From a bacterium (lineage in GTDB: Bacteria; UBA10199; 2-02-FULL-50-16; JAJFLM01), in assembly GCA_965216315.1 (NCBI GenBank), contig CBDCFN010000015.1:320001-384000 (forward strand): DNA of 64,000 nt, read 5' to 3'. Below are positions 14,025-63,570 of the stretch, piece by piece. Position 1 is the stretch's first letter. Each line of letters starts with the position of its first letter. Below the pieces are notes generated by a model. That model saw only the letters and a program-made list of their open reading frames with translations, had not been told where the DNA came from and ran no database searches. The position numbers and the translations under genes were made by a program.

Positions 14025-14049
14025 CAACTTACGCACTGCGTTGACGATA
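14025..14049 (+). promoter_or_regulatory. Sigma28-like promoter, copy 1 (near-leaderless)
   Basis: CAAC-N15-ACGATA, 7 nt before ATG 14057. Confidence 0.65.
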
Positions 14050-14056
14050 GAGCGGT

Positions 14057-15064
14057 ATGTTTATCGCGGTGTCGGGTCACACCTTCGTGGGGATGGCGTC
14101 CGCCCTGAGTCCGCTTGTCTTGGCGAGTGGGTTGCAAGCAGAGGGTCTCCCCAATCAATTGAATCAAGCGTCGGGTTTTGCCCGTAAGACGCGGCCGGAT
14201 GTTACCTTACATCAACTTGCTGCGCCCACCGAAATGTTGATTCCGGAACCGGTCGCGTCTGAGGCGGGACCGGACGGGAGAATCGAAGTGCTCGCGGCCG
14301 GGTTGAGTCTGTGCTGCAGCGGTTGTGAGACCGGGATGACCCTCGTGCTCCCTGTGTTGACGGGGGCCGTCTTGTTTGGATTGGCGACGCTCGTGATCAA
14401 ATGGCGGTCGCGGGTTCGCCAAGAGCGCGAGGCGATGACCTTTCGTATCGCCCGGGCCCCGAGTCAGATGCGCAAGTTGGATGACTACTCCGACAAGTAC
14501 CGCAAACAGGTGACGGACGCGATTCTGCGCGCGGAGCGAAAAGATCTTGTCGCATGGCCGGTCGTGATGGAGCAGATCCGCGATGGCAACTATGGCAATG
14601 CGATCGAGACGCTGGCGACCCGACTGAAGCCTCAACTTAAAGCCGCGGAGCGCGAACGCTTGCTCCCCTTTGGACTCGCATTGGCGGCGGCTTATAAAGG
14701 CGGCAAAGAAGGGGCGTCGTTACCGTTCGGCACCTTTAATTTACTGAAGGATTTTTTTAATGAGCGTGAGGGGGTTGCGGAGGAACAGGCCCGCCAGAAT
14801 GCCATTGATCGCTTCTGGCTCGACCTGCTCCAATACTTTGTCTTCGGCATTCATATGGAGGGAATCGCCGCTGCGCGCGTCGGTGAAATCAAGACGATGC
14901 GGAGTAAAGGCCGGATCCCCTCGAATGAGAAGATGCATCGGGCCTTCCAGCGCTGGCTGGATGCCCTCGAGCCGGAACCCGATCCCAAGGTGCGCTTGCG
15001 GGACCTGCCCCTCTATCGCGACTTTGCCCAGGCGCTTAAGCGCCATTTGAACGGGCGCGCTTAA
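14057..15064 (+). CDS. Hypothetical protein with LAS-type leader and one TM helix
   Basis: 335-aa ORF, MFIAVSGHTFVGMASALSPLVLASG leader, hydrophobic LVLPVLTGAVLFGLATLVI followed by basic residues. Confidence 0.7.
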   Translation: MFIAVSGHTFVGMASALSPLVLASGLQAEGLPNQLNQASGFARKTRPDVTLHQLAAPTEMLIPEPVASEAGPDGRIEVLAAGLSLCCSGCETGMTLVLPVLTGAVLFGLATLVIKWRSRVRQEREAMTFRIARAPSQMRKLDDYSDKYRKQVTDAILRAERKDLVAWPVVMEQIRDGNYGNAIETLATRLKPQLKAAERERLLPFGLALAAAYKGGKEGASLPFGTFNLLKDFFNEREGVAEEQARQNAIDRFWLDLLQYFVFGIHMEGIAAARVGEIKTMRSKGRIPSNEKMHRAFQRWLDALEPEPDPKVRLRDLPLYRDFAQALKRHLNGRA

Positions 15065-16067
15065 GCATAAAGGCGACATTCTCATGGCAGTTGATCGGAT
15101 CGATCTTGATCTCCGGATGCCGGGTGGCAAAGACGCGGAAGATCTCATCGGCAAAGCCCTGGCCGATCGTCGTGACCCCTTGAAAGTCGAGGGTGATTTC
15201 CTTGAATTCATCCAGGGCATGGACCAGCCGCTTGGCCTGGGCGCGGGAGACGTATTCTTCCCCTTCCTGAAAGAGTTTAACCGTGACCTGACTTTTTTCG
15301 AACTGGTAGTCTTCATTGGTGTACGTGCGGAAGATCTCCGTCAGTTGCCGCGTGGCGCGGGTACTCAGTTCAAAAATGACGCGCGTCCCCTGGCGAGCCC
15401 GGATGTCCGTAATAAAAAAATCACCGATGCGATTGTCCTTGATCAGCCCTTTGTGATGGCTCTCGATCGTCAGCCGGTCGGCGACCTTGGAGGTGAAGAA
15501 GATGCCCTCGCCGGAATGTCGTTCCGGTGCCGTCGTCTGCTTGCCCTTGAGCAGGTCCTGCAGGCCTTCCATTTCACTTGCCAGCCCTTTCTTGGCGCGG
15601 ATGTTTTCGAAAATGCCGACCCCCTGGTCGGTGACGTTGAACTGAATCGTCTCGGGGAGCTTGCGGACCGCGACGTCGATGAAGGGCGATTCCGCATGAT
15701 CGATCGCGTTGTTGACCATCTCCGTGAAGGCGTAGTGGAAGAGCGAGCGCGCGTTGTCCGAGAGTTCCCGGAGTAGGTCGGTCTGGGTCTCAAGTTCGCG
15801 ATACACGCGGTCCTCTTGGAGCCCACCCGCACGGTAGCGCTTATGCCATTGCGTCTGCGTGGCGGCAATTTCCCGGATTAGCTGGGGGTCATTGCGCAGA
15901 TAATAGGTCGTCCGCTTACTGGTTCCGAACTGGCGGATGCGCCCTTCCCGTAATAACGCCTGCAAATGCCGGTGGACGGCCTGGCGGCTGATGCCGAGTT
16001 GTTGAACGAGGCCGGAAGTAGTCAGTTTTTTACCTCTTTGAAATTCTTTAAGAATTTTCTCTTTCAT
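15036..16067 (-). CDS. Winged-HTH + HATPase_c + STAS-like (DUF4325) protein
   Basis: LGISRQAVHRHL HTH; FTEMVNNAIDHA, D-x-G-x-GI and GEGIFF GHKL boxes; SRAQAKRL...LDFQGVTTIGQGFADEIFRVF STAS-like end. Confidence 0.85.
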   Translation of the reverse strand: MKEKILKEFQRGKKLTTSGLVQQLGISRQAVHRHLQALLREGRIRQFGTSKRTTYYLRNDPQLIREIAATQTQWHKRYRAGGLQEDRVYRELETQTDLLRELSDNARSLFHYAFTEMVNNAIDHAESPFIDVAVRKLPETIQFNVTDQGVGIFENIRAKKGLASEMEGLQDLLKGKQTTAPERHSGEGIFFTSKVADRLTIESHHKGLIKDNRIGDFFITDIRARQGTRVIFELSTRATRQLTEIFRTYTNEDYQFEKSQVTVKLFQEGEEYVSRAQAKRLVHALDEFKEITLDFQGVTTIGQGFADEIFRVFATRHPEIKIDPINCHENVAFMLKRARSNGA

Positions 16068-16161: not shown

Positions 16162-16186
16162 CAACCTTTGGCTGCCCTAACCGATA
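16162..16186 (+). promoter_or_regulatory. Sigma28-like promoter, copy 2, upstream of the 16243-25490 operon
   Basis: CAAC-N15-CCGATA. Confidence 0.7.
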
Positions 16187-16205
16187 GAGTCCCCTGAAAT
16201 CACAA

Positions 16206-16237
16206 CTCTTTCACTGTCGTGGGGACAGGAGGAGGAG
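16206..16237 (+). promoter_or_regulatory. 5'-UTR hairpin motif plus SD, copy 1
   Basis: CTCTTTCA-CTGTC-GTGGG-GACAG-GAGGAGG. Confidence 0.7.
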
Positions 16238-16242
16238 ACCCC

Positions 16243-16701
16243 ATGGGAGATTTTTTCAGTAATCTTGCAGACGTCGTCCACATCGGCGGCGGTTATCGCT
16301 TACAACTCGATGATCCGATTGAGCCGCATCGCGCGACGGCCAACGTCCATGTCGGCGGGACCAGTAATTGGCGGGGGCCGGGCCTGACCTTCGGCCTCGA
16401 TGGCGGCATCGATAGCGCGGGCGAAGGGCGCGTCGGCGCTCGCGTTGGTTTTGGCGGTCCACTTCATCTCATCCTGTGGGGTGATATCGCCGCGCAGGCG
16501 GGGGCCCACCTGCAGGATACTCAGACCGGTTTTGAAGCCGGCGCCTATACCGGCGTCGTCGGTCGCTTGCTCGCTTTGACGCCAGTCGGGCTGATCGGTC
16601 TGCAGGGTGAGGTCAATGCCGGCAACCTCGGCAACGGGGATGCCCAATTGGAACTCGGGGTCCAACTGATCTGGGGAACCTCGTTTAGCCTCTGGCTCTA
16701 A
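16243..16701 (+). CDS. Small Gly-rich amphipathic beta-strand (outer-membrane-barrel-like) protein lacking a Sec signal
   Basis: Alternating strands (LTFGLDGG, VGARVGFG, IGLQGEVNAG, LELGVQLIWG), ends FSLWL; SD GGAGGAG before ATG 16243. Confidence 0.55.
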   Translation: MGDFFSNLADVVHIGGGYRLQLDDPIEPHRATANVHVGGTSNWRGPGLTFGLDGGIDSAGEGRVGARVGFGGPLHLILWGDIAAQAGAHLQDTQTGFEAGAYTGVVGRLLALTPVGLIGLQGEVNAGNLGNGDAQLELGVQLIWGTSFSLWL

Positions 16702-16710: not shown

Positions 16711-16742
16711 CTCTTTCACTTGTCATGGGGACAAGAGGAGGA
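16711..16742 (+). promoter_or_regulatory. 5'-UTR hairpin motif plus SD, copy 2
   Basis: CTCTTTCA-CTTGTC-ATGGG-GACAAG-AGGAGG. Confidence 0.75.
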
Positions 16743-16748
16743 GAACTC

Positions 16749-17273
16749 ATGTTCAACACGCTTTCCAATCAATTAATGTCCATGGTTCGCGTCAGCGTCT
16801 TGGGCCTGGCCGGTTTGACGGCTTCGGCATGCTCTTGTAGCGCTGTGGAGAACCCGCCACCGGATGCCGCCCTTAGCGACGGGAATGTGTCAGACTCCGG
16901 TCTCCTGATGGGACCATCGACCAACCTAATCGAGGCCGTGTGCGGCAAGCTCTCCGCCTGCTATCCCGAGATGGATCTGGAGGCCTGTCGAACGGCCCTG
17001 GCGGGCGAGCCCGGCCGCCAGATCTGGGATGAATTCGGCGCGCCGGAGAATCGCTATAATGCCATGGAGCTGAATTCCGCAGTGCGCAGCGGGGACTTGC
17101 TGGTCAGTGATAGTAATCTGGGCGCCTGTGTCGATGCGATCGGTGCGCTTACATGTGCAGATCTAATCGGTGAACCGTGGTCGAGCCGCAATCCGGATGA
17201 TTTTGGCAACGTTGAGAATACGCTCGGTAGTGACGTGGTGCCTGCCTGTGGCGACGTTTTCGCGAGCAGATAA
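16749..17273 (+). CDS. Cys-rich putative lipoprotein
   Basis: Hydrophobic VSVLGLAGLTASAC lipobox-like segment; C-x5-C-x8-C, C-x7-C and PAC pattern. Confidence 0.6.
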   Translation: MFNTLSNQLMSMVRVSVLGLAGLTASACSCSAVENPPPDAALSDGNVSDSGLLMGPSTNLIEAVCGKLSACYPEMDLEACRTALAGEPGRQIWDEFGAPENRYNAMELNSAVRSGDLLVSDSNLGACVDAIGALTCADLIGEPWSSRNPDDFGNVENTLGSDVVPACGDVFASR

Positions 17274-17288: not shown

Positions 17289-18926
17289 ATGTTTCAGTGC
17301 GCCCTCAATAGCCTGTCGACCACCCTCGCCGCGAGTGCGGTGGGCACGATTGGTACGAGTTACCTCAGTCAGTTTATGAACCCGGTGGACCCGATGATCA
17401 TGCCAACTCCAGGGGATTCTTATTATTGCTCGGTCCAGAGTGGCGACGAGGGTGGCGGTTCCAATCCGGCTCAGCGGTCATCTGTTGCCAGCTCTCTGTG
17501 GCTGCTCCGGCCGCGGAGCGAAATGACTTCCCTGTTGCGCGCGATGGCGGCGCAGCATCAAGTCACCTTTGATGTCTGGCTGGCCCGGATCCTGAAAGCG
17601 GCCGATGGCGAGGAAGTGTGCCGTCTGTTCGATCGTATCGAGCTTCGTGCAAATGCCAGCGACTGGCCGGAACCGGTGCGGACCTACGACCGGCAGGGCC
17701 GGGCGGCCGATACCATCCGCGCCTTCAAACTGGCCGGCGGCGTTCCTCTCTTACGGGACATCCTCGCAGACACCTCACACCCCTACCGGTGGCAGGCGAT
17801 TCGCGCCATTATTAGCCTGCAAGAGGCCGGGCTCCTGACAGCGACACAACAGCATGAGTTCATTCGCCCGCTGGCCGCGATGCTCCGTTCATTCTTGGAG
17901 GATCCCCGCGATAGTACGGATGGTCATGGGCTCTCGTTTGCCCTTCGGGCCCTCGGTCTGCTGGGCGCCCGCGAGGCGATTCCGGATCTCCAAGCGCTTT
18001 TCGACCTGCTCGCCGGAGTCGATGATCACACCAACAGTCTTCCGGCCCTTCTCCTACTCGCTCTCGGCACCTTGCGGGCCGCTTCCGCGCGACCGGCACT
18101 GCTGCGCTTGGCGGGAGCCGCGCAGTCACGACTGTATCGCGAAGCCATTATGGGGCTGGCGCATTTCGATGACGATGAAGCGAGCAGCCGTCTCGTCGGT
18201 CTGTTGGCCCATCCCAACCATGACATCCGCGCGCATGCGGCGCAGGCGCTCGGTAGGGCCGGTGCCCGGGAAGCGATCCTCTTATTGCAGACAGCCCTGC
18301 ACGACCGGCATGATTTAGTCCGGCTCTACGCCGCTCAAGCCTTGGTAAGATTAGGCGTATTTGATGCGGCCGTGGCTGTGTTGTGTCACTTAGCAACGAG
18401 TGAATCCACATATCTTCAGTTTCGCCTCGATGCCCTGGATACATTAGGGGCCTCTGCGGACCCCGAGATTGAGGAAACGCTACAACGGGCCTTCTTGAAT
18501 CCCGGCGAGCAACTCAATGCGCGGGCGCAAGAGTATGTTCGCTACCACGCGGCCTGCGCATTATTGCAACACGGCATTCGGGCGCCGCTCCCGTATTTGT
18601 TGGCTTTTCTTCGCGATCCTCAGCTGGATTCAAGTGCCGAGGTGTCATGGCGTTTCGCCGGTCAGACCGTTAGAAGACGCGTTCCGTTGCTGGTCAGCGA
18701 CGGTTTGCGCGTGACGACCATCCAGCATTTGAGTCGCGCGCACGTCCACGCAGCCGTTTCTTCCCTGAGAGGGTTCTTGAACTATCGCGGCCGCCAGATT
18801 GGTCAGGCCTGGGTGGGAGGGCTGGAAGTCAGAGCCGCGGCCGCCGCGGCGCTCGATCGGCTCGACCCGGGCTGGGACAAGCGCATGATGCGCGAATGGC
18901 GGGATTTCAATGGAGGTGTTCGATGA
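17289..18926 (+). CDS. HEAT-repeat protein with type-A leader
   Basis: Leader MFQCALNSLSTTLAAS...SYLSQFMNPVDP..MP.P....C; PBS-lyase HEAT repeats (IRAHAAQALGRAG, VRLYAAQALVRLG, VRAAAAAALDRL). Confidence 0.8.
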   Translation: MFQCALNSLSTTLAASAVGTIGTSYLSQFMNPVDPMIMPTPGDSYYCSVQSGDEGGGSNPAQRSSVASSLWLLRPRSEMTSLLRAMAAQHQVTFDVWLARILKAADGEEVCRLFDRIELRANASDWPEPVRTYDRQGRAADTIRAFKLAGGVPLLRDILADTSHPYRWQAIRAIISLQEAGLLTATQQHEFIRPLAAMLRSFLEDPRDSTDGHGLSFALRALGLLGAREAIPDLQALFDLLAGVDDHTNSLPALLLLALGTLRAASARPALLRLAGAAQSRLYREAIMGLAHFDDDEASSRLVGLLAHPNHDIRAHAAQALGRAGAREAILLLQTALHDRHDLVRLYAAQALVRLGVFDAAVAVLCHLATSESTYLQFRLDALDTLGASADPEIEETLQRAFLNPGEQLNARAQEYVRYHAACALLQHGIRAPLPYLLAFLRDPQLDSSAEVSWRFAGQTVRRRVPLLVSDGLRVTTIQHLSRAHVHAAVSSLRGFLNYRGRQIGQAWVGGLEVRAAAAAALDRLDPGWDKRMMREWRDFNGGVR

Positions 18927-20620
18927 CGTTTACTTGTGCCCTGAATACTTTGCCGACCACCCTCGCCGCGAGTGCGAGCATCTTGACGTCTCCGCGCGCC
19001 GTCGATTTCTTGGAGGCCTTTCAGGCCGATCCGGTCAATGGCCAATTAATAGTACCGATTCTTGCGGGAGATGCCAGCACAGCCACTCAAGATCGCTTTC
19101 ATGCGGAACCTTTTGCGGTAGAAAATTTCGCCGCCGTTCATGCGACCGTCACGACGTTGATCGCAGCCCTGCAAAAGCTCTGTGCCGGTCAGCAACGCTG
19201 CAGACTCATATTTGATGAGGTGTACCCGGGGGTTGCCCCACATATTTTTTCGATTCCCGCTAGCCCTGGAGCCTGGGAGGCTCGGCTTTACCAGGATCAC
19301 GGCACACACGCTGAGAGCTATTGGCTAGATTTCTTAAGGTCGGGACGCAAAGTAAGCATCACACTTCAGTATTCTGGTCAGCGGTACTTCGACACGGACA
19401 AGATCATGCTGTTCGGCGACATCTCGTCAGCAAGTATTGAGGTTGACGTCAGCTTTGCCCAGCCCGGGATGCGCGCCGCCCAGAACTCCCGGATGCATTA
19501 CTCCGATTCAAAAAGTAGCTCAGCGTATCTTTTACTATTTCAAGGCTCTCATCTTGATAGCTTGCGCCAGTTTTTGGGGATGGATTTATCACAAGCCTTG
19601 CCGGAACTGTCCGCCGAACTGGTCGAACACTTGGACTATGATCAATATGAAGACTCCGATGATGGCAACCGAAGCTTTTTCTACGATCATTATTCAAGCA
19701 TTGTCACACCCGATCAGCGGGTCACGGTCAGCTGGAATACAGACGATGAACTCGAAGAACCTGATGCCTATGGTCGAGTCCAAACGGAAGAACTCGGCGT
19801 GCAAATAGCTGCAGGAAGCGACGCGGCATCCGCTTTGCGTGACACAGAACGCCAGCTATGGGACTGGGTTCATCACCAAAAGGAGCCAAATCAAGAATTT
19901 CTGGAGTTTCAAGCCCAGTGTCAACGTATCAAGACTCTGCTATTCGCCTCCGGCGTTTTTCCACCAGACCATGCCCTGATAAGCGACCTCAGCGCCCCTA
20001 GCCATCCCGTATGGCATCTGGATGCCGAGAACATGGGGCATGTGCTAGGAGATATATTAAGTCGTATTTACCGTTCTCTCGAAGGATTTGAGTCCGCCGC
20101 CGCGGTTGCGCTCTATTGCCAGTTGCTCCAAGACCCAAAGCTGGGGCTGAGTGATGCTGAAAGTATTGAATATGTCATAGAGCACCTCTTGAATAATCCT
20201 CAAGCAGAGAGTCCTCCGCTGTTTGCAAAGGAAGCTGCACGGTTTCGCATTCTGCGTGCCCTCGTACCGCACCTAGTTCGGAACAACGCGACATACGGCC
20301 TTCTAGATATGCTAAGCGATTTGACATACAGCGCCCTGTTGAAAACCACGTGGTTTCAAGACCACAAAGCCGCTCAGCTCAAACCGCTGGAGGCTTACCC
20401 ACTCAATCCAACAAGAAGCGAAGCCTGGCGCCTGCTGATGGCTGAGATGGATCCGGCAGAACTACTCACGGAGGTCTTAGCCATTTGGACGGAGATAAGC
20501 GAAGAGATATTGCTATACCGTACAGTCGATGAAACCGAACGGGCCCGATTGAACGAAAAATATGAAGCCATGAAAACCTGGCTGACCTTGTGCCTGACAG
20601 GCCAGGGAGGTGAGTCATGA
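18923..20620 (+). CDS. Hypothetical protein with type-B leader and shared 'LR.YLG...W.W' domain
   Basis: MTFTCALNTLPTTLAAS...FLEAFQADPVNGQLIVP; LDSLRQFLGMD; QLWDWV; ATGA overlap with upstream gene. Confidence 0.75.
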   Translation: MTFTCALNTLPTTLAASASILTSPRAVDFLEAFQADPVNGQLIVPILAGDASTATQDRFHAEPFAVENFAAVHATVTTLIAALQKLCAGQQRCRLIFDEVYPGVAPHIFSIPASPGAWEARLYQDHGTHAESYWLDFLRSGRKVSITLQYSGQRYFDTDKIMLFGDISSASIEVDVSFAQPGMRAAQNSRMHYSDSKSSSAYLLLFQGSHLDSLRQFLGMDLSQALPELSAELVEHLDYDQYEDSDDGNRSFFYDHYSSIVTPDQRVTVSWNTDDELEEPDAYGRVQTEELGVQIAAGSDAASALRDTERQLWDWVHHQKEPNQEFLEFQAQCQRIKTLLFASGVFPPDHALISDLSAPSHPVWHLDAENMGHVLGDILSRIYRSLEGFESAAAVALYCQLLQDPKLGLSDAESIEYVIEHLLNNPQAESPPLFAKEAARFRILRALVPHLVRNNATYGLLDMLSDLTYSALLKTTWFQDHKAAQLKPLEAYPLNPTRSEAWRLLMAEMDPAELLTEVLAIWTEISEEILLYRTVDETERARLNEKYEAMKTWLTLCLTGQGGES

Positions 20621-32236: not shown

Positions 32237-32244
32237 AAATTTGC

Positions 32245-39312: not shown

Positions 39313-39322
39313 AGGGCCCGCC

Positions 39323-49924: not shown

Positions 49925-50006
49925 AGTTTGAGCTTGTGGGCGTCCCTCCTGGGTCGGACGGAATGCCTCAATATATTGTGCACTCGTTAAAGAAGGGGTA
50001 TTGGGC

Positions 50007-56000: not shown

Positions 56001-59000
56001 GGGGCCTTCGGGGTCGCGAGCATCAAAGGGAAGAATGGTCTGTGGGATGTCGTGGAAAGAGAAGCCCAGAAGGTGCGCGATGAATTGGGTCCTGACTATA
56101 ATGTTCACGCGACCAACCAAAATTCAACGCGGCAAGTCGGCTTTGCCGGGACGGAAAAGGGTGTCGAGGCCCTGGTCCATCGCCTCAGTGATCTTGGTAT
56201 CGACGGGTTGAAGACCCGGCGTCTCAATGCGATTGAAAACCCCTTTCATACGGACGCCTATGCCGATGCCGCCGAACGGATGTATCAATACCTGCAGGGA
56301 CTGGAGATCGACACATCACGCCTGCACCACATGATTTTAAACCATACCGGCGAGCGCTTTGCACCCGGAGACCAGGATATACGCCGTGCCCTCGCCAATC
56401 ACATCATGATGCCGATTCGGGTCGCCGATGGGCTTGAAACCGCCATTCGCGCCAATCCGAGCGCCGAACTGTTGGAGCTCGGCCATGTGACTGAATTGAC
56501 CAAGCGCGCTGCTGAAACGGTGGATGATCGAGGTTTGAATCACACGGGGGCAAGTCATTCCGCAGCGGATTCCTTTGCAGCGCTGACGTACGCCGAGCCC
56601 GATGACAAGATTGAGGTGGAGCAGCGGGCCGTGCGCTTGACGTCCGCGACGCCGCAGGCCGCTCCGGCAGCCGCCCCCGCAGCACAAGCGGCGGCAGCCG
56701 CGCCCGCAGCGGCAGTAGCCGCCCCCGTGGCGAGTGCCGCTGTGAGTGGAAAATATATTGAACCGCCCGCAGCCGGGACTCCCGAACACACGGCCTTACA
56801 GCAGGACGTGCGGGTGAGCTCCGCGATGCTGCTGACGGTTATGCCGGGGGCTTATAACAATATGCGCAGTGGCGCCCTGGCCCCCGATGACGCGGATTTA
56901 GTCGCGGCCGGGACCAATGCCCTGGTGACTTTAGGACCCGGGGCGATCGAGGGGCTTCAGACCGAACTCAAACACCGCGAAGACGCGCGGGATCGTTCCA
57001 CTGGCGCCGATAAGAAGATCCAGGAATTCATCGTCACGGCGCTCAATGCGGCGATCGAACGCTTGAAGGCCGCTCGCAAGGAGTTGGAGGCGTCCAAAGG
57101 CGGCGGCGGAGGGGGAGTCGACGTCGATTCACCGGAATTCCGGAGTGGTGTTGCGCAGGTCATGGATGCCGAAGCTGAAAAATTGGGTTTTGTCAGGACC
57201 TCAGCGGAGCAATTAAGCGACGCATCCAGCTACATTGCTGAAGTGGGTTCTGACGGCACGCTCTATCAACCCGGTGGGGTCAAGCAGGTGCAGGCCCAAG
57301 CGATCGCCGATGAGATCGCGACCAATACCTCCAAGCGTTTTGTTCGGATGATGACGGGTTCTTATAATGGCATCCGTTTCCACATGGATCAGATCCAGCA
57401 CAATGGGGCGGAAACCAATCTGTTTAACCTGGCCCGCGAACTCCGCGTGGCCGACAATGCCGGAACCCTCGCTAACATGTCGCAGGCGGCGATAGCACGC
57501 CGACGCCGGCGTTTGGCCAATCAGTTGGATGCGGATGGCGCAGCGCGTGCCGAAGCGCTGGCCGATCTGGCGGAGAGTCAAGGTTATGGGGCCGCCGCTG
57601 AAGTGTTGCGCGGTGTCGCGGCCGAAACCCGTGAGAGTTTGCAGGTCGGTGGATTACCACCGCTTCATCACTTTGAAATCACCGATTTTGATCCCCTTTA
57701 CGGCACGACTCAAATGGGTCGCGATGTATCCCGCGATATGTCGCCTGAGGAATCGCTGCAGTATCTCAAGGCGAACCAGCTGATCGACCCGGAACTGGCC
57801 GATCGTATCTTGGATTTCGTGACGGGCAAGGTCTCGTTGCGGGGTGAACGTGTCCTTGTAATGGGGAGTGGTACGATCTCAACACCCCTGATTGGTTTTC
57901 TCCTGGAGCAGGGGGCCCACGTTATTATGACGACGACGCGTCAGCGCGAACGCGTCAATCAGGAGGTCCATGACCTGTTCCAGGAATACGCCTCGCGCGA
58001 GGCGCGCTTGGAGGTCAAGACCGAGTTCGGCTTTAATCCGACCAACTACGTCAAATTGCGTGATGAAATGCGGTTGGATGGCTTTGCACCGACCCTTTTT
58101 CTCAATGGGGCCGGTCTGGGTGACTACGGTGCGTTTGCGGACGTTAGTACCGAAGACTGGCATGCCGTTTCCGAGGCCCTCGTGCGAGCACCCCTCTACA
58201 TGACCCGACTCTTGGCCAACTGGTATCTCCAGGAACAAAACGGCGTGACCTATACTTATATGGAACTCGCCAGTCCGGCCGCGGCCCGGCCTCTGCCTGG
58301 CAGTGGCTCTTATCGGGCGGCGAAGAATGCCCTCGATAACTTCGGCTGGGTCGATCATGTCGTTGCCTCTGAGGGGATGCGCCATGCCGACGGCACCCCG
58401 GTCGCGCGCCAAAAACAGCTCGTAGTCGGCTGGGTGAATGCCCCGGCCGATGCCAGCGGGAAATTGATGAGCGAGATGCGCAATAACTCGATGGCCGTCG
58501 TCGACCGCGCCCGTGAGGAAACGAATGTCCTGTTACATATCTTTAATGGTCAAACCATGGCGTCTGGGGCCCTTGGTGTCCTTCATCCGGCGCATCGAGG
58601 TCAGTCGGAACGTCTGGAGGCCTTAGGAAACTTTGATCATCCGCAATTAGAAGAAAATGGGCGCCTGGCGCAGATTATGGATGCCGTCAATAAGGCGGAA
58701 AAAGAGAAACACGACCAGGCGAAACGCCAGAACGGTAACAAGCCCCTGTCGGTTGCCGCGTCGCTACGTCATGCGGGCCGCACCGAGGAGGCCGATCGTC
58801 TTGAGGCCGCGCAACGCGAGGCCCGTGAAGTGGCGGAGGCCCATCCGTTTCAACATGGCTTGTTGTTCCGTGTTTGGGACATGCCTTTTTACATTCGTGA
58901 TGCGGCCAATGATGTCGATACTTTTGATGCCAACCGCCATGTCGAGGCCAGTAACGATGATCTCGTCGCCGTCGGTGTCGCCGGCACGGGTCCTTATGGC

Positions 59001-61571
59001 AAGACTTTGATCGGTAACTATCGCAATCCGCTGGAACGTTGGGGCGTGACCGGTGATTGGGGCGGTGCGGATTGGCAGGAATTAACGTCCACGATGCCGG
59101 ATATTCAGGCGGCCATGGTCAAGGCCATTGATGGCGTCGATAAGCCGGAAGACCTGACGCCGGAGCACTTCCGCGCGGAGTCTCCGGACGGCAAACCCTG
59201 GAGCGATAGAATTTTTGCGCAATCCGGTCTGCGTCAATTGGAGCACCTTGCCCGTCATCGTCGACTCGGATCGACCGTACTCAGTGACGATGCGTGGGTG
59301 CCGCTCTCGATTAACAATAAAGAGGTGATCAAACGCCACAGCGATGCGGGTCATGAAATCAAGGTTGAAGAGGCCTACAACGCCGAAACCGGCGAATATG
59401 AAACGCGGGTTTATGGCCGGGTGCCTCAAGGCGAAGATGTCTTTACCTGGGTGATCGATTCGCTCAACGTGTCGACGCTGGCGGATCTCCCGGGCGGGAC
59501 CGATAACTTCTTTAAGGCGATTACCGGGGTCTCTCCCAATGAGATGGTGATTCGCTCGTTTGCAACGGTGCTGACACGACTCACGGTCTCGCAGCTCCTG
59601 CGTTTTATGGGGATGAATGCGACCGATATACGCCGTGAAGTGACCGCGGCGGCGATTAACGTCGTGGCCGGGATCGGGATGGTCGACTTTAATCCGACGG
59701 ACGAGATGATGCTGTCGGCCGCACTTCGGGACAAGACCGAAAAAGACGCGATTGAAAAGGCGATTCCCAATGCGGTTTCCAATGCCAAGATCCATCAATT
59801 GGGCGCTGCGGACAGTTCGACGACGACCTCCGAGGCCTGTGCGACGGGTCCGGGGGCCCTTAAGATCGTTGAGGAGCAATACCTTGCGGCGAAGGCGCTG
59901 ATGGACAAAACGGCCGCGGCCGTGGCCGCCGGGCATGCCACGGAGGATCAACTCTTTAATGTGGCCCTCGATTACTACATGAAGGCCTACTTTGCCTGGT
60001 CCGTGGATCACGCCCAGGGGGCTGCTAACGTGCAGTCCTTTGATGCCCTCGGTGATCGTGGCGCGATGGCGCGGGATGACTTTTTGGCCGAGAATGGCCT
60101 GCCCCATCACTTGGCCTTGGCCGCGCACAATGAATATCGAGACGGTTTTATCGCCGGCGTCATGATCGGTGGGATTACCTTCTTCCCACGTCTGCTGGCG
60201 GATATCGTCGGGGCCCGACCGATTGCCCGCATGATTGGGGTGACGGGATCAACGGACTTTAATCCGCAGATCAGTGGAGGCAGTTCCAGCCGGGCGGATA
60301 CCGCGCCGGGAGTAGAAGGTCAGATCTTATCACTGATACGCTTGATCGATCGACTCAAGCAAGAAGGGTACAGCATCGATGATATCGTTGCCTGGTTTAC
60401 CCACTCAACGGGGACCATGGGCGATGACAAGCAGTCCGAGGCCCTACGCGAGGCCTTAGAGTTGGCCAACGCGGCCGAACCGGGCTTGGCTGTTGAGGTC
60501 TTTGCTAAACAAATCTTTGGTCATGGTCTCGGGGCGACGATGTTTGAGCAGGCCATTGCCTTGGTCTTTCTCCACATCGGACAAACATTGGGTCAACCGG
60601 CCTTGAGCCGGACGATTGCGGCGACGGCGGAGAATCCGCACATGTTTCCGAGCCGCCAGCCCTTGGACGTCTTTGGCGCCGTGGGACGCAGTCCGCGTCG
60701 CGGGGTCGTCGGAACCAATTTTGGGTTCCACGGTGAAAACCGCGCCTGGGCGATGTTTGCGGATACGACAGGGTATCAATCCGTCGGTGCGGCCATTGCG
60801 GGGCAAGAGCGTCGGGTCCTTAATGAGGCCCAGGCGATTGCGGACACGCATGCCAATCGCGACGGCGCGATGGATGATATCACCAAGTACAATACCGAAC
60901 ATGCGCCGGTCAGTAGTCATCCGCACGCCCAATTTATGGCCGATCATGCCCGCACGATTGCGATGATGATGGTCGAACAAGAGTTGACCGATCGTGCCTT
61001 CGACTTTGATAGCAATCTAGAAAATGAGGTCCTGGCCTATGAAGCCCGCCTGCGTCAACAAGGGCAGCTGCCTGGTCGGGTGACCTTGGGCCATAAGCGA
61101 GCCCTGGCAGCCATGGGTGGCGCGGATTACCAAGGACCCAACGCAGCAGTCGTGAACGCCCACCAGAGCGAGCAACAGGTCAGCAATGACGCGGTCCGTA
61201 CGGCTTACCAGCAATGGGGGGAGGGTTTTGCCGATGTGGCGGAGACCCTCGGTATCGATCAAGATTTCGTCCAGGGATATCTCGATCAATATGCCCGCGT
61301 CATGAGCCAGCTCAATGTCGCGCGACAGATCCCGCGTGATTGGAATTATCTGGCCAAGAGTTATCTTATCAAGGTTGGCGCCAAGGACGCCGCGTTGCTC
61401 TTACAGCGCACCATTGCTGATTTGACGCGTCGTCACGGTGAGGATCCTGTCTTGAGCCAGGCCATGGCCCTTTGGGTCTATCAGATGGCGGCCCAGAATC
61501 GTTTAAATGAAGTAAGTTGGGCACAGGTCCGGCAGTTGTGGGCGAATCGCCAGACGGCTGCTGCAGAATAG
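50007..61571 (+). CDS. Divergent type I (mycobacterial/fungal-architecture) fatty acid synthase AT-ER-DH-MPT-[linker]-KR-KS with N-terminal leader
   Basis: AT: APGQ, GHSQG, SPFHH; ER: AAMT, EG..GGGHNS; DH: DPNAIH..IIAQGM; MPT: FPGQGFQ..GM, TQPALF, NSLG, NPFH; Ala/Pro linker; KR: VLVMGSG..GA.VI.TT, YRAAK; KS: G.GPYG, EACATG, THSTGT, KQIFGH, NFGF. Confidence 0.88.
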   Translation: MPIIGSSLGLGNAGLLAAGGASHNVGLFQSFLGQAVSQVIASDRATEVVEGLLSQPNHGTLLQESGIQAESSEDILEQIAGSTEYARRALDNRELLEGIIASFVTQGQVELGDEFAVLLNPVTAGVHFTAAELGGIYSPVAGTDAGARYAQPLSHAIQTETATLRNALSEATTATQRLMDARHVDATQAAAINAVWTSMARLDRLLNVDVVQKPARLGEIDELQKATEAYLSDLGLQPMSQLALEMREGNYRFMLQAPGQANEYIGLFKQVYGRSDVARRFVDEIVIPALRSEGIDVNEYLDMDPAQLSLEQNKAVLNSSRISQPMILATQLALLEELKSYGFDPQFFTAGSGHSQGLLLASVAAGKTGPAEALRIVAIHGREMQNGTKAANTKVPMVSVLGISRMEAARMSNEINLHLALVNGIPGETAPLNPSQLRELKEKADSDMLYGRLFPVEKMAQDPALRAAYPFFARYFNRDFHLTDEEIRKLGLPRGLNESAAFIIRGDMETTYTALINMEPSDGSRTRGVMPAFIFSGTHQAQELVLGLLGNKQAGTEPHPAFRNVGYNFNKKEETTFPKTAVLITSSPFHHAGEQRAAFEKSVARADETRGEATFPVVLNSEPASFAELGLTPQQEAQRITAEQHVRHVDWPATVEKMLTFGDQTKPAVFVSMGDGVVAGFTAATTAGRATTIAAANKDGSGFAQLTSRKSAGLRLRTAPLADRSIYEPIEAQVLAGRPNVDGQYLGPIGYLSSVTLGNDKQRLDLIRRIRKVVDFSDPMHPKFNNDEILARLGAEGPYGVAAMTGPGTSKLIGAVARAGRTAYLAAGNYPGKAHLNISIKQGFITGLIDTAWETTRSADPATGELDAGSLTYGGEPVVRGSIETYSDRAQTDGQYLGEARFEGPMKSFGVNLMHAAGGGVFSKAQCDATAEMIDRGLPIDKISVGIYLIQDNAELRRYIPLLARGVRFAPLLPNMNAIRIYQDEHIPYLKEELKKYLEGGWRTFNADNPGYYESDAIHSRFAAAHPEYFGKGGYDRFMADHPDLLMKMREGNDGGGHNSPEGTPTYRLVQDAVVNPKNEKTKNISTGGYSFGVAVADALLSGAAGVQAGSVFEITQEADLPYKVKALIMEVADPDSPREATNIVSEFGKPLNVAVNAFSQAYVDLVATDDAEEILDILAREPVDSVRFHREFWNNGIETEDPALNFVMKNEAVFEPIWDFLVGDRQSGRQAALDAIRKLNAEDEKRCHANFLKKHKDESTRPAWNPTEGNDKAQLITFYRVFRTNMIQSGEVDPEWAYVLVGRSITRMPQQFLERFKADGTLPTVSEFINTIESDALSYLTQLMGRALTVQAQRAQAYELQSFDPVPNVQIFRQASEEGQQTLRVRPLGAMSEDALASFRRAAKAQGYGHVAEVLRQGSEFNRFFTPRAGREFYFDLQATDGQSPQLVAVRILQDGKEIARVESPSATEVTMSYEVPRDAYGELEPRTLTYQYNLQEPVPGVHEWRLDRERVQRESTAIFGELLTGTQLDYTGRTISDTYTDQRPVSEERVREYARIVGEGYDVFHREGVVHPGLVGVESLRSAVLASNHPDFQTDRFQLLHAFFNQSFGTSASVGSDVQVASRNTEATGLDNGGFSQDARIVTRNAAGDVVSEVDTGFVNLDPRSRFTPLSESIDPELADPATAETLTGFAAYPIWQPERVVKVTRQDILDYTMFDPNAIHHADFVAQMAGLDDGIIAQGMLVHGKMVSHMLGGYLQGDLDRAVSVKTTFTGKVLPGEDLDLVAYRIGQQGEYDILRFDATNADGNTVVTQEWKVRRNGQIVAFPGQGFQKAGMWTSVTNRYQAPQDAKPELKAAYERAQQAQRTFLKQVDQHSLERWGFRLSDVVKHAPKTLSFNVSEDYAGESYRGRSKGERLTVRNASQNGILSETDFTQPALFVAYVLDWIGMRELGKIHPDADIVYNSLGKIAALVAVGAISPVDGLQLARARGVFMGEVKGAFGVASIKGKNGLWDVVEREAQKVRDELGPDYNVHATNQNSTRQVGFAGTEKGVEALVHRLSDLGIDGLKTRRLNAIENPFHTDAYADAAERMYQYLQGLEIDTSRLHHMILNHTGERFAPGDQDIRRALANHIMMPIRVADGLETAIRANPSAELLELGHVTELTKRAAETVDDRGLNHTGASHSAADSFAALTYAEPDDKIEVEQRAVRLTSATPQAAPAAAPAAQAAAAAPAAAVAAPVASAAVSGKYIEPPAAGTPEHTALQQDVRVSSAMLLTVMPGAYNNMRSGALAPDDADLVAAGTNALVTLGPGAIEGLQTELKHREDARDRSTGADKKIQEFIVTALNAAIERLKAARKELEASKGGGGGGVDVDSPEFRSGVAQVMDAEAEKLGFVRTSAEQLSDASSYIAEVGSDGTLYQPGGVKQVQAQAIADEIATNTSKRFVRMMTGSYNGIRFHMDQIQHNGAETNLFNLARELRVADNAGTLANMSQAAIARRRRRLANQLDADGAARAEALADLAESQGYGAAAEVLRGVAAETRESLQVGGLPPLHHFEITDFDPLYGTTQMGRDVSRDMSPEESLQYLKANQLIDPELADRILDFVTGKVSLRGERVLVMGSGTISTPLIGFLLEQGAHVIMTTTRQRERVNQEVHDLFQEYASREARLEVKTEFGFNPTNYVKLRDEMRLDGFAPTLFLNGAGLGDYGAFADVSTEDWHAVSEALVRAPLYMTRLLANWYLQEQNGVTYTYMELASPAAARPLPGSGSYRAAKNALDNFGWVDHVVASEGMRHADGTPVARQKQLVVGWVNAPADASGKLMSEMRNNSMAVVDRAREETNVLLHIFNGQTMASGALGVLHPAHRGQSERLEALGNFDHPQLEENGRLAQIMDAVNKAEKEKHDQAKRQNGNKPLSVAASLRHAGRTEEADRLEAAQREAREVAEAHPFQHGLLFRVWDMPFYIRDAANDVDTFDANRHVEASNDDLVAVGVAGTGPYGKTLIGNYRNPLERWGVTGDWGGADWQELTSTMPDIQAAMVKAIDGVDKPEDLTPEHFRAESPDGKPWSDRIFAQSGLRQLEHLARHRRLGSTVLSDDAWVPLSINNKEVIKRHSDAGHEIKVEEAYNAETGEYETRVYGRVPQGEDVFTWVIDSLNVSTLADLPGGTDNFFKAITGVSPNEMVIRSFATVLTRLTVSQLLRFMGMNATDIRREVTAAAINVVAGIGMVDFNPTDEMMLSAALRDKTEKDAIEKAIPNAVSNAKIHQLGAADSSTTTSEACATGPGALKIVEEQYLAAKALMDKTAAAVAAGHATEDQLFNVALDYYMKAYFAWSVDHAQGAANVQSFDALGDRGAMARDDFLAENGLPHHLALAAHNEYRDGFIAGVMIGGITFFPRLLADIVGARPIARMIGVTGSTDFNPQISGGSSSRADTAPGVEGQILSLIRLIDRLKQEGYSIDDIVAWFTHSTGTMGDDKQSEALREALELANAAEPGLAVEVFAKQIFGHGLGATMFEQAIALVFLHIGQTLGQPALSRTIAATAENPHMFPSRQPLDVFGAVGRSPRRGVVGTNFGFHGENRAWAMFADTTGYQSVGAAIAGQERRVLNEAQAIADTHANRDGAMDDITKYNTEHAPVSSHPHAQFMADHARTIAMMMVEQELTDRAFDFDSNLENEVLAYEARLRQQGQLPGRVTLGHKRALAAMGGADYQGPNAAVVNAHQSEQQVSNDAVRTAYQQWGEGFADVAETLGIDQDFVQGYLDQYARVMSQLNVARQIPRDWNYLAKSYLIKVGAKDAALLLQRTIADLTRRHGEDPVLSQAMALWVYQMAAQNRLNEVSWAQVRQLWANRQTAAAE

Positions 61572-61601: not shown

Positions 61602-61898
61602 ATGTTTGCATCAATTGGAATGACGTCACTTTATTCCATGGCCGTCCCGACGCTGGCCTCATCGAGTTTTGATATGGCCCTGACTTCAGTGCGCAATTTG
61701 GTCGTGGAAATCAGCGGCAACCAAGCAGCCGCCCAGGCTCCGGCGACGGCAGAATTTACGGATTTTATGGGTTCGGATCTCTTGCCAACGGTCTTGACGG
61801 GATTGGCGAATGCCGTCGGCGAAGATGCCGATACGCTGCGCGGTAAGAAAATTATGACTTTTGGTCAGGCGGCTCAGTATATTCTGGATCGCTCCTAA
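61602..61898 (+). CDS. Stand-alone acyl carrier protein with N-terminal leader
   Basis: After a ~25-aa leader: AEFTDFMG-S-DLLPTVLTGLANAVG (Ser at the start of helix II) and KKIMTFGQAAQYI, resembling ACP KITTV..AIDYI; SD AGGAG. Confidence 0.62.
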   Translation: MFASIGMTSLYSMAVPTLASSSFDMALTSVRNLVVEISGNQAAAQAPATAEFTDFMGSDLLPTVLTGLANAVGEDADTLRGKKIMTFGQAAQYILDRS

Positions 61899-63537
61899 GC
61901 GCGACGACACTCACGATCGCATCCCCTGCACGATGGACGATGCCTTCGGCATGATGGGCCTGCCATTGACGCAAGCCGGCCAAGCTTCCCCCGCTTAATT
62001 CCAGTCGGTGCCAACGTTCCGTTTCAAGTGGCGCGTTAAACTCGCGGTACATCCACATATTATGACGCGCATCCGGATGGTGCGGGTAGAGGGCCTTGAA
62101 GATCGCCTCACTGATCGCATGACGTTCGGCCATCTGATGGGCACTGGGCCGCGTGTCACCGGGAAACAGCTCTTGGTAGCGGTCTTTAGGGAAATAAATC
62201 TTGGGATCTCCTGGTCCCCACCAGCCTTCTTCGTGGCGCCAAAAAACCCGGGCATCGGCCAGATCGATACCCAGACCGAGAAGATGCGGTGTTTGATGGG
62301 CCGCGCGAATACTCAATAAGCCGAGGGACAAACGGCCCACATCAGTAAAGCTGAGCCGGATATCACCAATGTTGCGCGCCTGTCTTATGCGCTCGAGTGG
62401 TTCGGATAACTGAAACTGCGCGAGACCCGTGTCTGGATCGGGAAAAATTTCAATATCCTGAGGACTCCAGAGGGTATCTCCGCATTCCGGGGCTTGATCG
62501 GTGAGGTATTGCCAGAGGGCCCGCTTGATCTCGATCCAGTTTGTTAGCTTGCGAATCTGTTCCTCGGGATGGTCCTTGAGGGCGGCGATACGTTCCATAA
62601 AGTAGCCCTGCTGCTCCGCGGGAGAAAAATAGTGAGTGATGAGACTGAGGGGCTCGCGACGCTGTTGGCGGCCAATGGGCTGCGTGTCAGCGGCCCAAAA
62701 GATCAGCCCGTGCAGGGGATCCGTCCGGCTTCGGGCGCGCTTAATGACGCGGAGTTGATGCTTGTCCGAATGAATGATGTCGGGGCTGACGGGACCCTGA
62801 AAGAGGGCATTAAGCTCCTGTGCGAAGTCAATCCAGCGCTGGCGTTCGCGCCTCTTGGGTGAAAGCTTCATGGGACGGTAGCCCCGGTAGACCTTTAGTT
62901 CACGTTGTTTTTCGTGACGTGTTTGCCGGGCCGCAAAGGTCTTGGGCAGGAGTCTCTGTCCGAGTTCACGACCGAGATCGAGGCTGAGACTGACCATCAA
63001 GGCCTGACCGGCAAGTCCTAAGGAGGCCCCGAAGAAGCCCGTGTCGCCGGCGATAGACAGGCCTAATAAGATGGCGCCAAATTGGAGACCTTCGCGCAAG
63101 AGAAAGCGGTAGACCTTGCCGGCCGTACTCAGTTCGCTGCGTCGTCCAGGCTTATTCAACAGTCCGTGTTGCAGGAGCCAGGTTGTGGCCTGCTCTTCCG
63201 TCCAGGCGGCGGCCTTGACCAGGCCGACGACGGCCGCAACCGAGGCCGTCGTCGAAAGGAGGTCGGCACCGGAAACGGCGGCCTCACCGGCCGCGAGCTG
63301 ACCGATGGCCTGCTCAATGTTGTGCGTGACGCTTAAGGTGACGGTCTCCGCCGCCAAGCCGATGCCGCGGGCCTTCAATAAGTCGCTCGACTCGGGGCTA
63401 AGCGGATTGATCTCAGCCCCTCGATCAATGGCATTGTCGACGGTTTCGCCCGCCAGCATATTTACGGTGTTGGCAGCGAGACCCCCGAGGAGGCTCGAAG
63501 AGGCCAGGATCGTCGATTGAGTACATACAGGCAACAT
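61852..63537 (-). CDS. Membrane-anchored 4'-phosphopantetheinyl transferase with two AcpS-like domains and a leader
   Basis: Domain 2: LGLGIDL...AERHAISEAIFKAL (AcpS G-x-D and A.RFAAKEA..KAL); domain 1: YFSPAE..W.EIKRAL..DIEI..D..G...IRLSFT; hydrophobic segments upstream; start ATG 63537 follows the promoter motif. Confidence 0.72.
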   Translation of the reverse strand: MLPVCTQSTILASSSLLGGLAANTVNMLAGETVDNAIDRGAEINPLSPESSDLLKARGIGLAAETVTLSVTHNIEQAIGQLAAGEAAVSGADLLSTTASVAAVVGLVKAAAWTEEQATTWLLQHGLLNKPGRRSELSTAGKVYRFLLREGLQFGAILLGLSIAGDTGFFGASLGLAGQALMVSLSLDLGRELGQRLLPKTFAARQTRHEKQRELKVYRGYRPMKLSPKRRERQRWIDFAQELNALFQGPVSPDIIHSDKHQLRVIKRARSRTDPLHGLIFWAADTQPIGRQQRREPLSLITHYFSPAEQQGYFMERIAALKDHPEEQIRKLTNWIEIKRALWQYLTDQAPECGDTLWSPQDIEIFPDPDTGLAQFQLSEPLERIRQARNIGDIRLSFTDVGRLSLGLLSIRAAHQTPHLLGLGIDLADARVFWRHEEGWWGPGDPKIYFPKDRYQELFPGDTRPSAHQMAERHAISEAIFKALYPHHPDARHNMWMYREFNAPLETERWHRLELSGGSLAGLRQWQAHHAEGIVHRAGDAIVSVVALRSDPEYTEPPDQKS

Positions 63538-63545
63538 CGTCCCTG

Positions 63546-63570
63546 TTTCGGCGAGCGGGACGGACTGTTG
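63546..63570 (-). promoter_or_regulatory. Sigma28-like promoter, copy 10 (near-leaderless)
   Basis: Reverse strand CAAC-N15-CCGAAA, 8 nt before ATG 63537. Confidence 0.68.

Follow-up and report, generated by a model that had tools for sequence, protein, structure and literature searches.

Introduction

The closest described counterparts of the system reported here are the class 2 to class 3 hierarchy of the flagellum, the FliA regulon of Bdellovibrio bacteriovorus, the secretin-less type III secretion systems (T3SSs) of the Myxococcales and the effectors of Hrp/Ysc injectisomes. The system is a regulon marked by a sigma-28-like promoter, many of whose products begin with an uncharged leader peptide. 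It was followed from a 64,000-nucleotide stretch of DNA (the window; genome G000, contig C15, positions 320001-384000; GenBank CBDCFN010000015.1) to the whole genome of the bacterium, which belongs to the GTDB lineage UBA10199 (assembly GCA_965216315.1; 2.96 Mb in 16 contigs, completeness 98%). An earlier note, made from the letters of the window alone, had read a set of its genes as a late-class secretome delivered out of the cell.

In common with the flagellar hierarchy, a sigma-28-like gene lies with export-apparatus genes, the -10 element contains CCGATA and the target proteins have uncharged N-termini rich in S, T, A, L and N. Unlike in that hierarchy, no flagellin, rod, hook, FlgM or FliS genes were found in the genome, the -35 element is CAAC and not TAAA/TTAAG, and about 80 promoters serve mostly orphan genes rather than filament parts, with targets that show no homology to the N-terminal domains of axial proteins. 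The Bdellovibrio regulon (Karunker et al. 2013, PMC3627812) resembles the present one in that, according to the accessible part of the report, a sigma-28-type promoter precedes about 100 non-flagellar, often uncharacterised genes, the consensus TTAAG-N16-CCGATA being present in 92 of 140 attack-phase promoters. The regulon described here probably marks one life phase. Bdellovibrio differs in being flagellated and in having no sigma gene embedded in a T3SS cluster, and neither a shared N-terminal leader nor leaderless transcripts are described in the accessible part of that report (PMC3627812).

The secretin-less T3SS of the Myxococcales (the 'Myxo' group in the available text of Abby and Rocha 2012, PMC3459982) is alike in its non-flagellar basal body and its former deltaproteobacterial lineage, and the needle-less T3SS* (available text of PMC12428579 and PMC12075869) is alike in that neither a secretin nor a needle has been assigned to the T3SS examined here. 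The likeness to the Myxococcales system is one of gene content; the present cluster differs in carrying sigma-28-like, FliG_C-, FliM-, FliO- and FliK-like genes, and in offering a candidate substrate set that can be read from the genome, while the substrates of the Myxococcus T3SS* are not known, going by the text available (PMC12428579). With Hrp/Ysc effectors the proteins share a disordered, Ser-rich N-terminus free of acidic residues, an aliphatic residue at position 3-4, orphan and fast-evolving cargo and the presence of one N-terminal module on unrelated C-termini. T3SS export signals are not known to follow a sequence consensus and tend to be poor in Leu. The leaders described here, unlike those of Hrp/Ysc effectors, are Leu-rich with an LA[AS]-type core. 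Genes for class I chaperones were not recognised, and regulation is of the sigma-28 type and not of the AraC or HrpL type.

No description of the regulon or of the leader was found in the open-access literature searched, in which the lineage is named, though never in a title or abstract; the regulon is a first handle on the lifestyle of these bacteria with small genomes, whether that of predators, parasites or symbionts. With a leader common to 4-6% of the proteome, tied to one promoter and often to a leaderless transcript, the lineage would offer a clean natural setting in which to study what the export gate reads. Concrete candidate substrates are offered for secretin-less T3SSs, and the presence of sigma-28 and FliG-like genes in a non-flagellar T3SS cluster bears on the origin of injectisomes from flagella (a topic of the available text of PMC3459982).

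Results and Discussion

A sigma-28-like promoter repeated across the genome

The loose pattern CAAC-N16-CGA was found 33 times in the window compared to 10.9 +/- 3.3 times in shuffled sequence, and none of 100 shuffles reached 33. A 28-nt position weight matrix, trained on nine copies (eight from the window and one from another contig), gave the consensus CAACyTTt-N11-12-cCGATAaGG. At a score of at least 16 bits this matrix found 89 sites in the genome, compared to 6, 8 and 12 in three first-order Markov simulations; at 18 bits or more there were 59 genomic sites and 3-5 simulated ones. The window holds eight matrix sites of 19-32 bits.

The -10 element, cCGATAaGG, forms the core of the matrix and is GCCGATAA-like, as in sigma-28 promoters, and its CCGATA is identical to that in the FliA-type consensus of Bdellovibrio given in the accessible part of PMC3627812, the -35 part being different. 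The -35 element is CAACyTT, 15 nt from CCGATA, and is thus a variant rather than the canonical TAAA/TTAAG box at about 15-16 nt. In a sample of 31 genomes of the class, from 17 families, the promoter pattern exceeded its reversed control in most genomes (for example 90 versus 0 in G023), with a result near that of the control in G029 (16 versus 10).

Predicted leaderless transcripts and an uncharged leader peptide

Gene calls were crude, being the longest non-overlapping open reading frames (ORFs), and 2412 such ORFs of at least 100 aa served as background. An ORF of at least 80 aa begins within 150 nt downstream of 77 of the 89 promoter sites (the promoter-linked set). In 34 of these 77 genes the start codon lies 3-8 nt past the 28-mer, compared to 10% at random positions, while a spacing of 0-2 or 9-11 nt was found in none of the 77; ATG is the start codon in 32 of the 34. 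Judged by this spacing, almost half of the transcripts of the regulon should be leaderless.

The leader was measured as the number of residues preceding the first D, E, K or R and was called at 18 residues or more. It was observed in 41 of the 77 promoter-linked proteins compared to 165 of the 2412 background ORFs. When the nine training copies were removed, leaving 80 of the 89 sites, the proportion was 36 of 68 (odds ratio 15, p = 7e-23), and the enrichment of promoters upstream of leader genes predicted in the earlier note was therefore borne out. The leader was present in 30 of 38 members of the leaderless class and in 11 of 39 genes with a 5' untranslated region (UTR), the latter figure being an underestimate because naive start choice adds false N-terminal residues.

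Leaders are rich in S, T, A and L (also G and N), with a frequent LA[AS] or LLA[AS][SG]-like core. LA[AS] within residues 6-32 was found in 24 of the 77 promoter-linked proteins compared to 188 of 2412 background N-termini, and at 83 of 2210 internal background positions. A strict regular expression for the leader was tried and dropped as too narrow, and the LA[AS] core together with the charge-free run was used in its place. Lys and Arg are lacking over 18-42 residues, so that the basic n-region and hydrophobic h-region of a Sec signal are not seen, in line with the claim that these leaders have no basic n-region. When ORFs with a run of at least 18 were divided by hydrophobicity, a promoter of at least 14 bits lay within 130 nt of 43 of the 144 that are not strongly hydrophobic, of none of the 21 that are, and of 31 of the 2247 remaining ORFs. 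The 144 N-termini passing this uncharged non-membrane filter compare to about 60 expected, given that internal Met-started segments pass at 2.5%. Many leader genes without a promoter of their own are operon-internal, for example those at 17289-24654 (genes of the window are named by their first coordinate).

Hrp-type export signals contain at least 10% Ser, have an aliphatic residue or Pro at position 3-4 and carry no acidic residue among the first 12. All three rules hold for 53% of the leader-plus-promoter set, and for 31% of promoter-linked proteins (taken with no protein filter) compared to 9% of the background. The comparison with late flagellar substrates drawn in the earlier note also held, as uncharged N-terminal runs in E. 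coli K-12 are 35 residues in FlgK, 19 in FliC, 17 in FlgE and 13 in FliD; the rod proteins, FliK and FlgM of E. coli have no long uncharged N-terminus. A run of at least 12 was found in 4 of 14 E. coli flagellar substrates compared to 2 of 25 neighbouring genes.

Contig C16 encodes a further paralog of the 29978/32245 family in which the first ~21 residues are missing, and the leader is therefore a separable module. In a structural model of the protein encoded by 32245 (predicted local distance difference test score, pLDDT, 68.6; predicted template modelling score 0.69), residues 1-20 have a pLDDT below 50 and are modelled as disordered, while the rest is folded.

A T3SS cluster with an embedded sigma factor

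The earlier note had predicted that the genome would contain a FliA/WhiG-family sigma factor and an export locus such as a T3SS; a FliA/WhiG-like sigma factor and a T3SS locus were found, outside the window on another contig. The single FHIPEP gene of the genome lies in a T3SS cluster at C16:339-362 kb (with surroundings 339083-364413; loci L001, L003 and L004), and a FHIPEP gene is present in 31 of the 31 sampled genomes of the class. The cluster encodes two FHA/YscD-like (YscD_cpl) proteins, TPR proteins, SctJ, a sigma-70-family sigma factor and a FliG_C-like protein, together with SctL, SctN, SctO, a FliK/HpaP-like (SctP-like) protein, a FliM/SctQ-like protein, a FliO-like protein, SctR, SctS and SctT; SctU (Bac_export_2, 377 bits) is encoded away from it. 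SctV scored 806 bits against the hrcV cut-off of 692 and did not pass the FlhA cut-off, while SctN (620 bits against a cut-off of 605) passed both the SctN and the FliI clade-2 cut-offs. With the FliP, FliQ and FliR families present, the export gate and ATPase of a non-flagellar T3SS are both represented. The SctJ model gave E = 3e-33 and 115 bits, below its cut-off of 162.

The sigma gene in the cluster, the only FliA/sigma-28-like one of the genome, has TIGR02479 FliA_WhiG as its best NCBIfam match (E = 1.3e-38). When E. coli FliA was compared with the genome, this gene gave the top match, the other two matches being RpoD and RpoH. Within the cluster only two promoter matches lie at gene starts (17.2 and 13.4 bits), and these precede the orphan genes directly after sctT, of 717 aa and 491 aa; two weaker matches (12.6 and 13.0 bits) lie on the opposite strand. 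This is the layout expected if apparatus and sigma factor came first and sigma-dependent late genes after. The 717-aa gene, the first after sctT, also carries the leader. Its orthologs are restricted to the same family, and both keep the promoter, the short spacing and the leader, the sequence of which has drifted. In a protein atlas the 717-aa protein gave weak matches (0.85) that include NleC and HopF2 effector clusters, which is regarded as a lead only.

No genome match was obtained for flagellin (PF00669, 6 candidates scored) or for rod and hook proteins (PF00460, 18 scored), nor for a phage-type sheath, type VI secretion system (T6SS) VipB or type IV secretion system (T4SS) VirB4. Two secretin matches were found: a strong one in a type II secretion operon with GspE/F-like genes and pseudopilins (neighbours judged by eye), and a weak one of 27.6 bits remote from the T3SS genes.

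Relatives of the sigma gene were found at 45 loci labelled Deltaproteobacteria bacterium, Myxococcota bacterium or UBA10199. The gene is followed by a FliG-like gene at 41 of these loci, by SctL at 38 and by SctN at 37, and SctJ lies ahead of it at 32 of 45, several loci ending at a contig edge.

A 162-aa helical ORF (L003:13407-13895; G000:C16:351407-351895) overlaps the stop codon of the sigma gene, and at 41 of 44 related loci an ORF of about 160 aa is found in this position. The 162-aa ORF had no family match, and a PDB profile search returned nothing relevant. Its identification as FliE/SctI was rejected (hhalign to E. coli FliE, probability 0.2), as was FlgM, the Pfam family of which has no match in the genome. 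An AlphaFold model had a pLDDT of 53, too poor for a structure search. The ORF may encode either an anti-sigma factor or a protein of the inner rod.

Interpretation and alternative explanations

The regulon itself, its sigma-28 character, the leaderless geometry, the association of the leader with the promoter and the position of the sigma gene inside the T3SS cluster are as good as certain. That this is a late-class T3SS substrate regulon, following the class 2 to class 3 logic of flagella with the leader as export signal, is considered to have an even chance of being correct, on the basis of co-regulation, resemblance and the exclusion of other machines. In such a scheme the apparatus operon, itself without these promoters, would be made first and would bring the sigma factor along. 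The sigma factor, which presumably reads these promoters, would then fire some 80 or more copies of CAACyTTt-N11-12-cCGATAaGG, almost half of them giving leaderless mRNAs with the AUG 3-8 nt past the motif and the rest giving mRNAs with a 5' UTR, in five cases with a hairpin that would hide the Shine-Dalgarno (SD) sequence. More than half of the products would start with 18-35 uncharged residues rich in S, T, A, L, G and N, often with an LLA[AS][SG]-like core, and this leader would act as the peptide signal that hands the proteins to the export gate of the T3SS, their presumed exporter. The place of filament proteins would be taken by roughly 85-140 mostly orphan cargo proteins.

A number of observations weigh against this scheme. 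Some of the tagged proteins would be awkward as T3SS cargo, most of all the very large (3854 aa) fatty acid synthase (FAS)-like enzyme of the window, and ordinary lipoproteins and Sec-type proteins also belong to the regulon, which is therefore wider than a secretome. The sigma factor scored 133 bits, below the curated FliA_WhiG cut-off of 189.6. FliS, FlgM and CsrA families have no match in the genome, no T3SS secretin could be assigned among the two genome matches and none lies in the cluster, and the small ORFs of the cluster have no Pfam or NCBIfam match that would point to a needle, no needle-specific model having been searched. Proteins expected by homology to be early T3SS substrates have no leader, the FliK/SctP-like protein beginning with charged residues. 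An expectation-maximisation motif search (width 7) on 38 leaderless N-termini gave no sharp motif, the leader being largely compositional. Finally, the strict leader is clear in the same family only, while the T3SS and the promoter are class-wide: with 10 promoter loci taken per genome, the strict leader followed the promoter in 4 of 9 ORFs (G001) and 5 of 10 (G002) in genomes of the same family, and in 1 of 10 in a sister family of the same order (G003), and the counts were about 3-4 of 20 (G023) and 2 of 18 (G030) in two more distant families. The late-class secretome of the earlier note is accordingly supported in part, by the promoter-leader link, the sigma factor and the T3SS locus; an ordinary lipoprotein stands among the tagged genes, and the labels acyl carrier protein (ACP) and phosphopantetheinyl transferase (PPTase) given to two of the proteins failed.

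Several of these observations would be accommodated if the sigma-28-like factor were a global regulator of a life phase (attack, dispersal or infective) and the leader served another purpose, such as an unrecognised export route, association with the membrane or a cell pole, or assembly, the T3SS being one of many co-regulated items. About two thirds of the attack-phase promoters of Bdellovibrio, including those of many non-flagellar genes, are under the control of FliA according to the accessible part of PMC3627812, and the regulon here takes in lipoproteins and Sec-type proteins as well as a repeated family of genes that have 5' UTRs. The family-specific leader beside a class-wide T3SS, the leader-free early substrates and a cargo that includes the 3854-aa FAS-like enzyme, an RtcB ligase and a malic-enzyme-like protein would also fit. 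This explanation is nevertheless judged unlikely, although it keeps real weight: no other specialised exporter was found in the genome (T4SS, T6SS and sheath searched), nearly all relatives have the sigma gene within the T3SS cluster, the genes after sctT carry the promoter and the first of them also the leader, both kept in its orthologs, and the leader resembles the N-termini of late flagellar substrates.

The remaining explanations concern the leader itself. Its LLA[AS][SG] core resembles, by eye, an AxA or Cys-less lipobox-type cleavage region, and the excess of LA[AS] at background N-termini over internal positions is partly due to true signal peptides, so the leaders might be atypical Sec or other general signal peptides of periplasmic or surface proteins, with LA[AS] as the peptidase site. 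We regard this as improbable given the missing basic n-region, the complete absence of the promoter from strongly hydrophobic uncharged N-termini, the occurrence in the same genome of classical signals (Lys/Arg plus a hydrophobic stretch) and of lipoboxes, for example in SctJ and in several members of the regulon, and a cargo that includes cytoplasmic-type enzymes. The modelled disorder of the leader and its modular presence or absence within one family would suit a stability or timing tag, a degron or a chaperone-holding segment by which the proteins would stay inactive or short-lived up to a certain phase; the leader has no protease or adaptor linked to it, however, and the resemblance to export signals is closer, which makes such a tag quite improbable. 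Since about half of the promoters give transcripts predicted to be leaderless, and the leader is commonest there, its composition could also be a by-product of a nucleotide-level constraint at mRNA 5' ends, and its second codon positions are indeed poor in A (0.11 compared to 0.30 in gene bodies). In codons 2-22 of 55 leader genes, however, third positions have the base composition of gene bodies, and Leu, Ser (both families), Ala and Thr are each encoded by their full range of synonymous codons. Leaders also occur on genes with a long 5' UTR (29978, 32245 and 50007) and on promoterless, operon-internal genes (17289-24654). A pure mRNA-level explanation is therefore unlikely, and is given very little credence.

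If the late-class T3SS substrate regulon is taken further, the lineage could be seen as a living flagellum-injectisome intermediate, with a secretin-less T3SS containing FliA, FliG-, FliM-, FliO- and FliK-like parts, a class 2 to 3 checkpoint and about 100 effectors with a sequence-defined leader, many of them made from leaderless mRNAs. This is put forward tentatively and is on balance doubtful; if true, the substrate repertoire of a needle-less T3SS would be readable from a genome for the first time.

Promoters, leader genes and cargo of the window

Among 19 candidate genes of the window, 15 have an uncharged run of at least 18, and 13 of those 15 have LA[ASGN] at residues 6-32. About 17 leader proteins had been claimed. 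The candidates outside the 15 are 16749 (lipoprotein-type, by eye), 16243 (no leader), 39323 (run of 11) and 21777 (R at position 2). Similarly, from a claim of ten CAAC-N15-NCGA promoters, eight are solid (19-32 bits) and one is plausible. The plausible site (63543..63570, - strand) matches the loose pattern only and scores below 9 bits; the ATG of gene 61852-63537, which has a leader-type N-terminus, lies 5 nt downstream.

The first promoter (14025..14052, + strand, 19.0 bits) ends 4 nt before the ATG of an orphan gene of 335 aa (14057..15064, +), the product of which has an uncharged run of 28 with ..PLVLASG, and the transcript is predicted to be leaderless. The second (16162..16189, +, 27.0 bits) heads the gene chain 16243-25490. 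This begins with a Gly-rich orphan of 152 aa (16243..16701, +), which has the promoter and a hairpin and is without leader, and a 174-aa lipoprotein-type protein (16749..17273, +; signal ..LTASAC, lipobox by eye), which is preceded by a hairpin and likewise has no leader. A 545-aa protein (17289..18926, +; leader MFQCALNSLSTTLAAS) follows, for which the label of HEAT-repeat protein was confirmed, and then an orphan of 565 aa (18923..20620, +; leader ALNTLPTTLAAS), the N-terminal half of which is paralogous to 29978 and 32245. The chain continues with orphans of 387 aa (20617..21780, +; leader ALNSTLLAS), 372 aa (21777..22895, +), 214 aa (22892..23536, +) and 373 aa (23536..24657, +; leader ALNSTVLAN), and its last gene encodes an orphan of 278 aa with an uncharged run of 21 (24654..25490, +).

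An N-terminal module of 85 aa is common to 17289, 21777, 22892 and 23536. Its parts are the leader, a stretch with the conserved pattern LNPxD..MPxP..C and a linker that is acidic or rich in Gly. When a profile of this module was searched against 1.84 billion representatives, only 8 proteins were found, 4 of which were the query proteins; the other 4 were 2 foreign proteins, with the module N-terminal on unrelated C-termini, and 2 weak matches to internal repeats.

The orphans 29978..30922 (+, 314 aa; leader FNSMALAS) and 32245..33192 (+, 315 aa; leader LNAMALAS) have promoters at 29901..29928 (+, 27.3 bits) and 32164..32191 (+, 30.0 bits), respectively. Among 5.8 billion protein clusters the sole match of 32245 was itself. 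Its structural model gave no Foldseek match in the PDB at E <=0.001, and the best hit of a wide VIA-align search (Z 6.2) was within the noise range. Fic-domain genes adjoin members of this family at two separate loci, one encoding a DUF4172+Fic protein between 29978 and 32245 (30949-32067, - strand) and the other a Fic_N+Fic protein directly upstream of the leader-less paralog (L156:161-1312; G000:C16:110660-111811), which hints that a Fic gene and an orphan of this family form a functional pair.

An orphan of 182 aa (29238..29786, -) has an uncharged run of 33 with neither an LA[ASGN] core nor a promoter match. The orphan 38136..38936 (-, 266 aa, or 272 aa from an upstream ATG at 38954; leader QATTVLAG) is served by a promoter at 38961..38988 (-, 28.0 bits), with the start codon of gene 38136-38954 6 nt past the motif. 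Two further genes with predicted leaderless transcripts follow: 39323..40405 (+, orphan, 360 aa, uncharged run of 11 only), with a promoter at 39288..39315 (+, 31.9 bits) and the ATG 7 nt past the motif, and 40504..41310 (+, orphan, 268 aa; leader QATTVLAN), with a promoter at 40468..40495 (+, 32.4 bits) and the ATG 8 nt past it.

The promoter at 49900..49927 (+, 23.3 bits) precedes, with a 5' UTR of ~79 nt, the gene of the 3854-aa type I FAS-like multidomain protein (50007..61571, +; leader ..NAGLLAAGG). Its domains are, in order, an NMO-like reductase, a MaoC dehydratase, an acyltransferase and a ketoreductase of the short-chain reductase type, an order which we take to be that of fungal or corynebacterial type I FAS. 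No ketosynthase was detected in the protein, and its last 1054 residues have no Pfam or PDB match. The adjacent orphans of 98 aa (61602..61898, +; leader ..VPTLASS) and 561 aa (61852..63537, -; leader ..STILASS) had been labelled as ACP and PPTase and are not recognisable as such, the former giving no Pfam match and the latter no Pfam or PDB sequence match.

Among the cargo of the window, recognisable domains are limited to the HEAT and FAS-like proteins. Outside the window, 27 of 40 leader-plus-promoter proteins have no Pfam family. The rest contain a cysteine-dioxygenase-like cupin, GGDEF, TPR, two LamG, RtcB, FGE-sulfatase, GT28 glycosyltransferase, malic-enzyme-like and HAD domains and a weak FHA match. 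Between the leader of the FAS-like protein (..GLLAAGGASHN..) and that of a GT28 glycosyltransferase (..GLLLAGASHNN..; G000:C16:256529-257926, L132) the likeness goes beyond composition, which suggests that leader modules may have been copied between unrelated genes. A protein atlas search with a 60-residue leader piece gave no match.

A hairpin at the Shine-Dalgarno sequence

Five copies of a hairpin-SD element had been claimed for the window; four were found there, and a fifth lies on another contig. In all four window copies CUCUUUC is paired with a GGAGGAG SD sequence in a stem of 5-6 bp. Copy 1 (16206..16238, +) lies in a 5' UTR and has a stem one pair shorter, copy 2 (16711..16743, +) precedes the lipoprotein-type gene, copy 3 is at 29943..29975 (+), and in copy 4 (32206..32238, +) a C-G to U-A double change preserves pairing and is thus compensatory. 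One copy has lost a mutually pairing U and A. Downstream of the five copies stand leader genes in three cases, a lipoprotein-type gene in one and a Gly-rich gene in one.

Folding energy z-scores of +0.1 to -1.6 were not significant for the base composition, a search of 30 relatives that allowed up to 3 mismatches gave no copy, and an Rfam scan of the whole window gave no family at gathering score. Control by CsrA, which the GGA motifs had suggested, was ruled out, as the genome has no CsrA (PF02599, 13 candidates scored). The hairpin is read as a recently duplicated, genome-specific cassette for translational control in 5' UTRs, not a conserved RNA, and as standing outside the core system; it may perhaps respond to temperature or to some factor.

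Neighbouring genes and other regulon members

Five direct copies of ATGTCAA(C) lie at 16068-16160, between the promoter at 16162 and a divergent regulator gene (15036-16067, - strand) with HTH, HATPase and DUF4325 domains. They look like operator or iteron sites for this regulator.

A cluster of paralogous genes was seen at G000:C16:2,161,000-2,186,000, the products of which begin M(G/T)CDLYGASNLEG..GLCRANPGTAYG. Most members are preceded by a sigma-28-like promoter of their own and have a 5' UTR. The family belongs to the regulon and has no leader.

The stretches 12443-13831 and 35232-49860 of the window contain housekeeping genes, placed between leader genes. These are of the kind found near an origin, namely mnmE, mnmG, rsmG, parA, parB, a bactofilin-like gene and the F1Fo ATP synthase operon (translations judged by eye). 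The leader genes are therefore accessory genes within the core chromosome, with no obvious island. A PIN-domain gene (33215-33589, - strand) and a small ORF upstream of it, probably a toxin-antitoxin pair, separate the leader genes from a glucose/sorbosone dehydrogenase-like gene.

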